A stretch of 62,555 nt of DNA, the filler included, from Asterionella formosa (Eukaryota): the NCBI GenBank assembly GCA_002256025.1. It is 5 parts of 5 records of this genome, joined end to end, with 100 filler letters (N's around TTAATTAATTAA, not from the genome) between each part and the next. Parts side by side here need not be neighbours in the genome. Positions count along the whole stretch, not along the records: positions 12,555 to 24,992 come from NKIB01007530.1; 4 more parts are not named here. One strand, written 5' to 3'. Positions 17,469-21,191 of the stretch are shown piece by piece. The position numbers and the translations under genes are program-made. The notes under the pieces are model-generated. The model was not told the origin of the DNA. It did not search any database and worked only from the letters and a program-made list of their open reading frames with translations. The first letter of the stretch is position 1; the number at the start of each line of letters is the position of its first letter.

Positions 17469-20404
17469 CTATAGAGTACCTGCAATTTTCTGAGCTTGGT
17501 ATTCGGCAAGACTCAATCCCTTGCGAACCCGAGGAACCCTGTGCTGTTGAGTTTTCAAGCTAAAGGATATGGCCCCAGTGTCTTCTTCATCAAAGGCAAA
17601 CTGATGACTCTGGGTAATCTTGGCAGCTTTTTGCGCTTCTTGCACAGCTTGAGCTGTTGCAGCACTCCCCGTCAGACTCTGGGGCTCCTCTCTGGTTTCA
17701 TTTTCTTTGGAACCAGATGGCTCATCATCTTTCTTTTCTTCTTTCTGTCCAACTTCCCATAAGATCTTTGGCTTCACCTTGCGTCGAGCATATGGATTGA
17801 ACTTTGCCACGCCATGCTTGGCCTCTCGTTCTTCTTGGGATTTTTGTGCCTTGTACGCTTCGAAATCGGCGTCCTTATTCATTTGCATAGCCCGCTGATT
17901 CACTTTTGCCCAATTTTGATCCTTGCGACGTTTGGATAGGTTTGTCTTGCGTCCGTTGACAATCTCGTTAGTAGCCGCTTGCGCCTTGAGCATTTCTTCA
18001 AGGTCTAATTCCGCTTCGCCCAAGACACTTTCAGCAACCTTGACAGCATTGCTCAAATTATCTTCTTCAGTGCGATTTCCACCGTCATACTCAATTAATT
18101 TCTTCTTGGCATCGTCCAATTTACTCTGTGCTTCCTTCAACTGAGTTTCAGCGGCCTGTACAGCAATGGCTGCCCGAGTTTGTTCCAAGGCAAGGTTCGA
18201 CAAAGCCTTCCCACTCTTCTTTCCTTCTTGCAGATTGAATTCAATATCTTCTTTGGTATATGTGTAGTTATTAACGAGAGCGTCCTGGCGCGTTCGAATT
18301 CGATTAGCCTTGTTCCTAGACATGACTGTTACTTGGCGATTCGTCTTCTCCATGGTAACAAACTTGTTGACATCTTCTTCGTTGGGACGAGCATCTGAAA
18401 TCAGGTACATGGGAAACTCCCTAGTGTTTGTGCCGAATCTCAAGGACAACATTTTCTTCGATGACACTGGCTTTTCGTTTGGTACTGTTGGAAACTTGTA
18501 TTCTTTCTTTCCCTTGGTTACATCCACAATTTCACAAAGCCGATACATTTTTTCCCCCGTGGACTTGTCGGGTCCGATAAACACACGAGCGAAACAACCA
18601 ATCACCGCCTCGTTAAAAAATGGTTCGTGACACCACCGTGCCAAACGACGACGAGGAAGAGTAATCTGAATGAAATCATCTAACGTAGCATCGACAACTG
18701 TTCCGCCAGTCGGCTCACGCTGTGCCTCACGCTTACTCGGTAAAGCCACGTCATTCTCAGAATCGGAATCCTTATGTCGATCTAACTTTGAGGACGAGGC
18801 TGCCTCCGCAACTGTGGACGAGCGGGTTTTCTTCTGTCGAAGCTTGGACAAGAAACCTTCAGCTTCATAATCGTCGTCTGAGTCTTCATCGTCGTCGCCA
18901 AAGTCCAGATCACTCTCGTCGTCCTCGTCCTTCTTACTTTCCAATAAAGAGGTCTTGCGCTGCTGGCGCAGGACAGCAAGTGCCTGCGCCTTTTTATTCT
19001 TTGCTCCACTGGCATCACGATTACGTCCTGACATTGTTGCTGCTCCCAGCGTTGCTGCCAATTCCTCATCTTTGGAGGTATCCGCCTTTTCGGCTGGTTT
19101 CTTTGTTGCAGCTTTTCTCGAGCGTGTTGCTTTGCCACCAGATGCCCCTTTTCTATCTTCACGCTCCTTGCGCCTGTGTTTTATGGATGTTAGTCGAAAT
19201 AGACGCGCAATATAGCGTTTAACACGAACAATAAAAACGCTGTTACGTACTTGGCCTCTCTGAGAGCCTTCTTCATATCTGCGTCTGCCTTGCGTTTTTC
19301 AAAACGCTCCCCCAAAATAGCCTCACGATCAATTTCTGGAAGACTGTCAAGATATTTCTGGTCCTCCTCATCCTTAACTAACGATTGTGGACCTAATCCA
19401 ACATCATCCATTTCCACTTCTTCATCGCTGCTGCTCTCGTCCTCTGATTCTTCCATATCATCCGCTTCCGGTTTTTTGGCAGCAGAGCTCCGAGTAGGTC
19501 GCTTGGCAGGAACAAAGTCGTCTTCATCATCCTCATCGTCGTCTTCCATAGGCTTTCTCAAAACTTTTCCTCCCGAACGAAGTGATTTGCCACCCCCTGA
19601 ACGAACCGGTTGCTTTATTGGAGCCGATTCTTCCTCTTCCGAATCACTATCAATCTCCATCTCATCATCGTCTTCCTCGTCATCGTCATCATCATCATCA
19701 AATTCCAAGTCCTCCTCATCCTCGTCGTCTTCCACTTTTTTCCTATGTTGTCAAAGAAAATTAGCAATTGCAACGAGTGAATACAACTGTTTCTACTTTC
19801 CCTCGTCAATCATTACAGAAAAAAGCAAACAATATATATACGTACGGCTTTTTTAGTTGCTTCCCACCTGGCAAAGTCTTGGCCACCTTTTTGGGAGGTG
19901 ACGGTGAATCATTGTCTTCTGATTGAGGAACCTGTGGATCAATAACTTGTTTTCCACTAGCAACAGCTGGTTCCTTATCGTCATCGTCGTCATCATCGTC
20001 ACTATCTTCAACGGAAGGAGGTCTCATTAAAGCTTTCCCTCCTCCTCGAGATACAGGTTTAATGACAACAGGTGGTGGTTCCTCTTCTTCTTCCTCATCG
20101 TCTTCACTTTCCTTGGGCCTTATCAATGATTTCCCTCCACTTCTTGGGACTGGTACAGGTGCTTGCGGCGGAAGCGGTTCCACCTCGTCTTCGTCCTCCT
20201 CACTGTCATCATCATCATCATCGTCACCATTTGGTGGTGGTGGTCGCATAAATGCTTTTCCTCCTCCCCGTTGAACAGGGACAACGACTAAATTCTCTTC
20301 CTCCTCCTCCTCATCGTCGTCGTCGTCATCATCATCAGGTGGAAGTTGTAACAATGCCTTTCCACCACCTCGCGCGACTGGACGAATAGGGACATGATGT
20401 TCTT

Positions 20405-20435
<31 letters not shown>

Positions 20436-21191
20436 GTCGTCTTCATCATCTTCATCCTCACTATCATTTTCAGGAGGACGTAACAATGCTTTCCCACCTC
20501 CACGTTGAATGGGACGAATAGGAACTGATGGTGGCATACTATTACTATCTTCCTCGTCCGAGTCTTCATCTGATTCATCCCTGAATAAAAAATGTAGAAT
20601 AATATAAATGATGAATATAAATGGTAAAGTGAATGAGTATTAATATGAAAGGTAAATGCCAATGAATAAAAGACATGACTTACGTAGCTCTCAATTGTTT
20701 CCCTCCAACTCTAAATCCTTTTCCACTTTGTGGTGGTGGTGGTACTACAACTTGTTCCTCGTCTTCCTCCTCGTCATCTTCATCACTATCATCACTTTGT
20801 GCAGGTGGTGGTCGTAATTGTTTCCCCATCATTCGATTCAATTGTTTCCCCCCCGAACGGCCACCACCATGGTACTGACGATCATTATTTTGTTCGTCGT
20901 CCTGTTGACCATTGTCTTCATCATCCGACGATGGATCATCATCAGCAAATCGACGTTTGATATTGACCTGTTGTAGTAAATATACACGTATAGTAGATAG
21001 TGCAGTGCAGTGCAGTGCAGTGTTGTGTTGTGGATAGAGGTGGAAGAAAGAGTGAGATTCACCATTTTGCGGCTGCTACTTTTCGAGATGGAGCGAGAAA
21101 ACGGAAACTGAATGTTTCAGTTTCAGTTTCAGCTTCAGCTTCAGCTTCAGTTTCAGTTCTGAATTTGAAAAATAACCATGAAACTTACCAT
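17469..21191 (-). CDS. RTF1: RNA polymerase II-associated protein RTF1 (Paf1 complex; HMD + Plus3), 5 exons
   Basis: Plus3 domain (LPRRRLARWCHEPFF..GCFARVFIG..YRLCEIVDV) and HMD-like DEEDQKYLDSLPEIDREAILGERFE. Frame-preserving GT-AG introns at 20968-21188, 20581-20683, 19743-19845 and 19174-19250. Exon 1 codes only the ATG. Confidence 0.9.

Follow-up and report, generated by a model that had tools for sequence, protein, structure and literature searches.

We have analysed a stretch of 62,555 nucleotides (nt) from the diatom Asterionella formosa (GenBank assembly GCA_002256025.1; five parts of the genome joined by filler and henceforth called the window, in which positions 12,555 to 24,992 come from NKIB01007530.1). 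The minus strand of positions 17469..21191 carries the gene for RTF1, in five exons that specify a product of 1072 residues. RTF1 is a subunit of the Paf1 complex (Paf1C), which moves with elongating RNA polymerase II; the product of the window gene is identified as such from its predicted sequence, which includes a Plus3 domain. The array described here belongs to what appears to be the disordered N-terminal arm of the protein, where 13 short Gly-Lys units alternate with 13 acidic runs (each of at least six D/E/S residues), and the same type of unit recurs in the RTF1 of the sampled diatom lineages. Its consensus is roughly hydrophobic/Pro-Arg-x-(G)-G-G-K-Q/S/A-L-R-x-P. The pattern of conservation suggests that selection at the protein level maintains the motif, and we give about an even chance to the reading that the array is a lineage-specific, multivalent docking and/or modification module on Paf1C, centred on the lysine.

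The gene model was initially assembled from four open stretches, put into one frame via phase-consistent GT..AG junction candidates. Splicing was checked with RNA-library contigs from four runs of four studies, placed on positions 17300-21400 of the window. The libraries that contain the gene at an identity of at least 95% (X2, X7 and X8) are labelled lake-water or freshwater metatranscriptomes, and no contig covers 20197-20472, a stretch masked as repeat. The exons and introns are as follows.

21189..21241, minus strand: exon 1, 5′ untranslated region and ATG (21191-21189), then donor GTAAGT; X2 record 9 and X7 record 17 span 21187-21241, joined to 20965
20968..21188, minus strand: intron 1, 221 nt, GT..AG, microsatellite-rich; joint 20965>21187 (cut +2) in X1, X2 and X7
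20684..20967, minus strand: coding exon 2, residues 2-96; N-terminus MVNIKRRF, two acidic tracts, units K42, K50, K84 and K91
20581..20683, minus strand: intron 2, 103 nt, GTAAGT..CAG; joint 20579>20683 (cut +1) in X1 and X2
19846..20580, minus strand: coding exon 3, residues 96-341; array core, K126, K170, K204, K246, K278, K306 and K336 amid long D/E tracts
19743..19845, minus strand: intron 3, 103 nt, GTACGT..TAG; joint 19741>19845 (cut +1) in X7 record 14, shorter side 214 nt
19251..19742, minus strand: coding exon 4, residues 341-505; doublet K393/K400, acidic tracts, first half of the HMD-like region
19174..19250, minus strand: intron 4, 77 nt, GTACGT..CAG; P0192 and 15/15 orthologues continuous, L001 with an intron at the same place
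17469..19173, minus strand: coding exon 5, residues 505-1072 and stop; second half of the HMD-like region, Plus3 domain, C-terminal region

For introns 1 to 3, spliced joints are present in the RNA contigs at the predicted sites. The start codon occupies a separate coding exon of 3 nt (21189-21191), beyond position 20967, where the first-pass annotation of this DNA had let the N-terminal region end. The 5′ untranslated region reaches at least to 21241, and the 50 nt upstream of the start ATG hold no other ATG. A start at the ATG of 21065, followed by GT, was rejected: it lies inside intron 1, and the RNA joints place the exon with the start codon at 21189-21241. The ATG at 21063-21065 would encode an identical protein if it were joined to the acceptor of intron 1. 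Four other RNA joints (19696>20083, 19699>19980, 19700>19981 and 19992>20765) were dismissed as repeat or foreign-organism artefacts, with sides of 21-23 nt inside acidic-codon repeats and without GT..AG ends.

The RNA contigs hold no spliced read-out of intron 4, which X7 record 13 (17846-19251) and X8 record 22 cross unspliced. Run X8 looks like DNA or pre-mRNA from a related strain, uninformative for splicing, since none of its introns is spliced out and it diverges at dozens of positions and by small indels within intron 3. The junction of exons 4 and 5 is documented by proteins: residues 14-88 of database protein P0192 (656 residues) match exon 4 at 75/75, up to ...ALREA, and its residues 90-656 match the Plus3 exon 5 at 566/567, with no break after the exon 4 part, while 15 out of 15 N-terminally extended orthologues are continuous over the junction. 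In L001, a genomic relative at 79% identity, an intron occurs at the identical codon. Because P0192 and the 15 extended orthologues run through the junction, the exons of the array are joined to the Plus3 exon, as had been proposed from the sequence; the exon chain is thus borne out by RNA at introns 1 to 3, whereas intron 4, unspliced in the contigs, rests on P0192 and the orthologues. Retention of intron 4 leads to a stop 19 codons beyond REAK (read-through open reading frame 19190..19750), and, if real, such transcripts would specify a protein with the array and half of the HMD but without Plus3. Residues 1-13 of P0192 read another frame of exon 4 (window ~19490-19530; the letters of open reading frame 19393..19557), and the protein enters the RTF1 frame at KKPEADD, beside a run of six A; the switch suggests an indel of 1 nt in the contig or allele concerned.

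Downstream of the array, two regions are characteristic of the family.

18354..18674, minus strand: Plus3 domain, residues 672-778 (Pfam PF03126, E 7.8e-27, 94.4 bits against a cut-off of 27)
18936..19381, minus strand: HMD-like region, residues 462-584, split by intron 4, LPEIDREAILGERFEKRK ... RNRDASGAKNKKAQALAVLRQQRK (orthologue alignment)

The match to PF03126 spans profile positions 2-106 of 109. The HMD-like assignment is made by orthologue alignment, without a curated model: residues 462-584 align with the blocks LPExEREAIL..RFEK and RNxDAxGxKxKKAxALAxLR, also in conifer and animal-type RTF1. The C-terminal region is likewise conserved, with ARRKVKPKILWEV ... RKGLSLxEY as the consensus of two alignments (A1 and A2). 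A search with exon 5 found 828 relatives at E ≤0.001 among 1.84 billion representatives, many of which match its residues 1-567. The nearest named ones are diatoms: the cluster of Phaeodactylum tricornutum XP_002182864.1, Corethron pennatum, Cylindrotheca closterium, Cyclotella cryptica and Stephanocyclus. With exon 3, no Pfam family scored over its cut-off, and the ESM Atlas search gave a top score of 0.76, under the useful range.

The positions of the array and of its units (each from -3 to +3 around the lysine) are listed below.

19550..20862, minus strand: array proper, residues 37-405, 13 units, introns 2 and 3 inside
20856-20836, 20832-20812, 20730-20710 and 20709-20689, minus strand: units K42 to K91
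20501-20481, 20369-20349, 20267-20247, 20141-20121, 20045-20025, 19961-19941 and 19871-19851, minus strand: units K126 to K336
19597-19577 and 19576-19556, minus strand: units K393 and K400

All 13 units before the HMD core (residue 475) conform to G-K-x-[L/F/V]; 10 are GGK[AQSV][LF] and three are single-Gly GK. Every unit that the first-pass annotation had listed among the acidic runs is found in the spliced protein; one of them, ASGGKATR (K519), which it had placed after the HMD, sits instead in a variable basic linker inside the HMD-like region. This additional unit is kept in near relatives only (SGGK in L001, AGSK in P0001). Composition-preserving shuffles of the first 505 residues yield a mean of 0.002 GGK[AQSV][LF], and none out of 20000 reaches 10. 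The first 474 residues comprise 165 D+E as against 55 K+R, with 51 Pro, 76 bulky hydrophobic residues or Cys, and 16 CK2-type sites (S/T-x-x-D/E).

At the DNA level, the direct repeats in 19000-21000 are nearly all tracts of acidic codons (61-94% identity), and the motif-coding DNA that copies have in common amounts to only 19-22 nt at 73-89% identity (families D9 and D10). Within the 13 copies, Gly is encoded by GGA, GGT, GGG and GGC, Leu by TTG, TTA, CTA and CTT, and Lys by AAA and AAG. Because the copies differ in synonymous codons, the array is no recent DNA expansion. A recent tandem DNA repeat or low-complexity expansion was rejected on account of the short and divergent motif DNA, the varied codons and the presence of the motif in 27 orthologues.

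These 27 diatom-type orthologues, amongst them those of Phaeodactylum, Corethron, Cylindrotheca and Cyclotella, make up the curated set, in which sites were counted ahead of the HMD. Together they hold 165 GGK sites, and the number of G-K-x-hydrophobic units per sequence has a median of 7 and ranges from 1 to 13. Of the first 16 HMD-containing orthologues, 11 have at least 170 residues ahead of the HMD, and all of these carry 2-11 GGK sites (the window protein has 10); another 14 with at least 150 N-terminal residues have 1-9 units. The motif, which the first-pass annotation had suggested looking for in other diatoms, occurs from pennate to basal centric species, from Corethron to Phaeodactylum. 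Acidic tracts alternate with the basic units in all orthologues.

When the central residue was left free (GG-X-x-hydrophobic), it was Lys at 159 out of 160 sites and Asn at the remaining one, but never Arg, in regions where the overall K:R ratio is 551:504. The lysine, on whose conservation the initial proposal turned, is thus virtually invariant, which together with the varied codons rules against simple low-complexity expansion. Gly precedes the lysine in 102/102 K-x-L-R sites, and GG in 78/102; R-x-L-R has zero occurrences in the pre-HMD regions of the curated set. Further positions are constrained to a lesser degree: Leu at +2 (125/165), Arg at +3 (93/165), Pro or Met at +5 (102/165), and Val or Ile at -8 (45/165). 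The flanks favour Arg over Lys, with R:K ratios of 45:0 at -4, 40:1 at -5, 36:2 at -6 and 93:2 at +3. In the three best pairs of sequences (55-67% identity in the folded part), the motif columns are 74-85% identical, as compared to 35-47% for the acidic spacers and 42-54% for other columns, and 6/7 to 8/8 sites are aligned. In the other five pairs, the advantage of the motif is smaller (0.49-0.53 vs. 0.23-0.42) or absent (0.38-0.41 vs. 0.33-0.41), and only 2/11 to 6/11 sites align. With few sites aligned in distant pairs, it follows that individual sites turn over, while the type of motif and its multiplicity persist.

Some observations count against our reading of the array as a docking or modification module. 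X7 record 13, a contig of a spliced library, still contains intron 4, and its end coincides with the last base of exon 4; intron retention or pre-mRNA may be the reason. Four orthologues with an HMD and only 38-146 residues ahead of it (P0004, P0009, P0011 and P0030) have no unit or one; they may be truncated models or true losses. P0270 and P0286 hold one GGK-x-hydrophobic unit each, and the Asn that replaces the lysine occurs in P0253. In the exon-4 doublet of L001, the second unit is GGGKTLRKP, but the first reads A-G-S-K-T-L-R-R-P with Ser before Lys, so Gly at -1 is not absolute. Compared with P0255, the motif columns of the window model score 0.41 against 0.41/0.33, and compared with P0253, 0.38 against 0.37/0.34; only 5/10 sites align in either case.

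Outside the diatoms, 19 more distant homologues (of at least 560 residues) have 0-2 GGK each and no array. No unit was found in the RTF1 of Tribonema (P0076 and P0183), of a conifer (P0105), or in the animal-type RTF1 sequences compared; the first-pass annotation likewise knew of no such motif in yeast or animal Rtf1. Two dictyochophyte-type proteins carry a doublet followed by an acidic tract: RY-GGKQPR..RY-GGKKPR in residues 7-31 of P0090 (Octactis speculum) and F-GGKAPR-Y-GGKQPR in residues 1-22 of P0297 (MMETSP-derived). Both doublets have an aromatic residue at -3. These GGK-x-P-R doublets could represent an older, reduced form of the array. A word-based search with the motif-dense residues 18-100 of P0006 gave three matches (E ≤0.01) in 2761 candidates of 403-1283 residues, all of them Plus3 proteins, in a search that proteins with a single unit would escape.

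In yeast and mammals, a LLALA box near the N-terminus of Rtf1 (yeast residues ~4-11; LLSLA in mouse) binds the CHCT domain of Chd1, according to the available parts of two reports (PMC12390759, PMC13289920). A pattern of this kind ([LIVM][LIVM][ASNT][LIVM][AS] ahead of the HMD) is present in 7 out of 18 non-diatom sequences, all seven animal-type, but in 0/20 diatom N-termini, including that of the window protein, and in 0/2 dictyochophyte-type N-termini. The LLALA region is comparable to the array in that it is a short linear motif in the same family and place, disordered and N-terminal to the HMD. It recruits a chromatin factor to elongating polymerase, a role that the diatom array would share. 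The two differ in make-up, one acidic/hydrophobic box as against 7-13 basic Gly-Lys units. Since the array sits where yeast and animal Rtf1 have the LLALA box, which is absent in diatoms, it may be the diatom way to recruit a chromatin partner. In its available part, a 2026 survey of elongation-factor evolution counts the region around the metazoan LLALA box among the least characterised and does not mention diatoms (PMC13289920). Our literature searches returned no account of such an array in diatom RTF1 or in that of other stramenopiles, proteome supplements, which may list modified peptides, being outside their scope. Judged by titles and abstract starts of the matches listed, no paper on an Rtf1 carrying a histone mimic was found, and accession B7G787, the Phaeodactylum tricornutum protein XP_002182864.1, is unnamed in the searched papers.

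The first-pass annotation had proposed that the units are multivalent histone mimics. In sequence, the units do seem to resemble histone tails, though over a short span. GGKAPR is the H3 hexamer around K14 and GGKGL the H4 context at K8; the diatom consensus GGK-Q/S-L-R has G-G-K in common with both tails, plus either the Arg at +3 (H3) or the Leu at +2 (H4), and the two contexts appear to fit about equally. A Gly before the Lys is typical of acetylation sites in histone tails, not of the main methylation sites. Strict mimicry, in which the units copy sites of the H3 K14 or H4 K5-K12 type for the same writers and readers and RTF1 competes with, or replaces, the tails, strikes us as unlikely. 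It would account for the Gly at -1 before every K-x-L-R, presumably as in tail acetylation sites, for Arg near -6/-5 and at +3, presumably as in H3 around K14, and for a lysine never replaced by Arg, as expected of a modified residue. The disordered context is another likeness, and the two dictyochophyte-type RTF1s have GGKAPR, GGKQPR and GGKKPR at the extreme N-terminus, although the exact GGKAPR occurs only in P0297. On the other side, the diatom units have Q/S at +1 and L at +2, where H3 has A-P and H4 has G-L. The part in common is only 3-5 residues long and fits three tails about equally, and the outer flanks from -8 to +5 (hydrophobic/Pro/Arg) are conserved without being histone-like, namely V/I-P-R at -8 to -4 and P/M at +5. 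The many copies within poly-D/E set them apart as well, and a phmmer search with the N-terminus of P0297 found no match amongst PDB chains at E up to 10. The proposal is borne out in part, by the multivalency and perhaps by the G-G-K core with Arg near -6/-5 and +3; actual mimicry would mean that the units share the writers or readers of histones. Other histone mimics are the GK-x-GK site of Twist, H4-like and read by BRD4, and the automethylation site of G9a. The NS1 tail of influenza A H3N2, a histone mimic that binds PAF1 according to the available part of a review, is a precedent that ties Paf1C to a histone-like tail (PMC10222983). In common with these, the diatom protein would be a factor in transcription, not itself a histone, that carries a short lysine motif of histone type within a disordered region; for NS1, Paf1C is the target, whereas here it would be the carrier, with many copies and as a conserved host feature.

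The alternation of acidic tracts and basic units also brings to mind the N-termini of nucleolin and Nopp140/treacle, where acidic Ser/Asp/Glu tracts alternate with basic repeats. Like these, the arm is nuclear and disordered, with about 10 acidic/basic alternations and CK2-type sites; theirs are Lys/Pro/Ala-rich, loose and nucleolar, whereas the diatom unit is sharply defined, discriminates Lys from Arg, and belongs to an elongation factor. That the arm is a charge-patterned polyampholyte of this type, histone-chaperone-like or condensate-forming, with the motif as a basic block without a specific partner, is quite unlikely. Its overall composition, the 13 acidic runs and 16 CK2-type sites, the alternation in all orthologues and the turnover of site positions between distant ones would be explained, but not the choice of Lys (159/160, Arg 0) at the centre and of Arg (93, Lys 2) at +3, nor Gly at -1 (102/102) and Leu at +2 (125/165), nor the conservation of the motif over the spacers in closer pairs. 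Very unlikely, too, is the identity of the unit with a catalogued linear motif, be it a motif for the ET domain of BET proteins, a cyclin RxL/Cy site, an RGG box or a nuclear import signal, for none of these classes demands an invariant G-G before Lys. Yeast Rtf1 has a high-confidence ET-binding motif, and its chromatin association is lost on depletion of Bdf1/2, as reported in the available part of PMC13373324. The ET consensus given there is hydrophobic-basic-hydrophobic-basic or (hydrophobic/basic)-hydrophobic-hydrophobic-basic-(hydrophobic/basic) (PMC13373324). Like the diatom units, ET-domain motifs are short, basic/hydrophobic and located in disordered regions of elongation factors, and a minority of units, K-[MIV]-L-R-[MKL], fit; but the consensus lacks an invariant G-G-K and fits only 10/165 units (within -1..+6), so this identity was rejected. 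With a hydrophobic residue or Pro after it, K-x-L is loosely Cy-like. Several units start with R-G-G, yet an RGG/RG box depends on Arg, while the invariant residue is Lys and Arg is found at -4 in only 45/165; this identity was rejected as well. For an import signal, 7-13 copies would not be needed. That the array arose by neutral low-complexity expansion, or that the upstream exons belong to another gene, is extremely unlikely and already contradicted. The acidic codons are highly repetitive in DNA, intron 4 is retained in two RNA-library contigs, and the database models of relatives P0001 and P0193-P0195 begin at the Plus3 exon; but all four introns are supported, the short models were called without regard to introns (in P0001, the intron is translated in the frame of exon 5), and the motif is kept from Corethron to Phaeodactylum with varied codons.

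Charge patterning, catalogued motifs and neutral expansion each explain less than a docking or modification module does. The strict central Lys, the flanking Arg, and the Gly and Leu, in an arm that evolves fast, point to a geometrically specific contact, beyond a block of charge. Such a contact could be made with a binding pocket or the active site of an enzyme; a histone-tail-like acetyl-lysine site would be the most specific version compatible with the data. We infer a trans-acting partner, a lysine-directed chromatin factor for which the copies would act as multivalent docking or modification sites: an acetyltransferase-type writer, a reader, or a lysine-pocket carrier. Paf1C would then display many Gly-Lys sites of histone-tail type on the transcribing polymerase, and the acidic spacers could mask the motif in cis or hold histones. 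In a far-reaching form of the docking and modification reading, which we consider quite improbable, the array is a true multivalent surrogate of histone tails derived from a GGK-x-P-R doublet similar to H3 K14, of the kind that the dictyochophyte-type proteins retain. Histone acetyltransferases that travel with the polymerase would acetylate it and deacetylases reverse this, the units would alternate between contact with the acidic tracts of RTF1 and recruitment of bromodomain or lysine-pocket factors, and the array would have replaced the link of LLALA with Chd1.

Rtf1 is the hub through which H2B ubiquitylation, H3K4/K79 methylation and Chd1-dependent nucleosome spacing are coupled to the elongating polymerase. 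Lineage-specific wiring resides in its N-terminal arm, and a lysine-invariant motif in up to 13 copies across the sampled diatom lineages offers a mutable handle on the coupling of chromatin and transcription in major primary producers. Phaeodactylum, which has the same array, is genetically tractable. If the units are histone-like substrates or ligands, RTF1 would stand as a rare instance of a multivalent histone surrogate borne by an elongation factor of the host. The array and the LLALA box would also illustrate cleanly how, at one position in a conserved protein, a linear motif can take the place of another.

Other parts of the N-terminal arm show conservation of their own. The extreme N-terminus of the window protein (residues 1-12) and its orthologues is kept as M-[VP]-N/R-[IVT]-[KR]-R-x-F, followed by Asp/Glu, and could serve as an import signal or some other short motif. 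The pennate orthologues P0002, P0005, P0182 and P0298 have an AT-hook-like G-R-P-[KR]-R between the array and the HMD, where the window protein (residues ~420-432) shows no more than K-R-P-T-R.

The genes neighbouring RTF1 in the window are unrelated housekeeping genes, none of them a candidate partner, and several long open frames (e.g., 54407-57193 and 59592-62393) gave no Pfam match at E ≤1e-5. Neighbouring open frames specify a fatty-acid desaturase (3382-4890), a riboflavin kinase (5336-6220), a protein with a PSP1 C-terminal domain (7077-8138) and an enoyl-CoA hydratase (22201-23163). Intron 1 of the RTF1 gene includes the microsatellites (AGTGC)x4.8 at 20999-21022 and (GTTTCA)x7.5 at 21114-21158 (TRF), the latter with one additional GTTTCA unit at 21113 in an X2 contig, and a (GTT)x9.3 array at 21251-21278 lies just upstream of the observed transcribed 5′ end.

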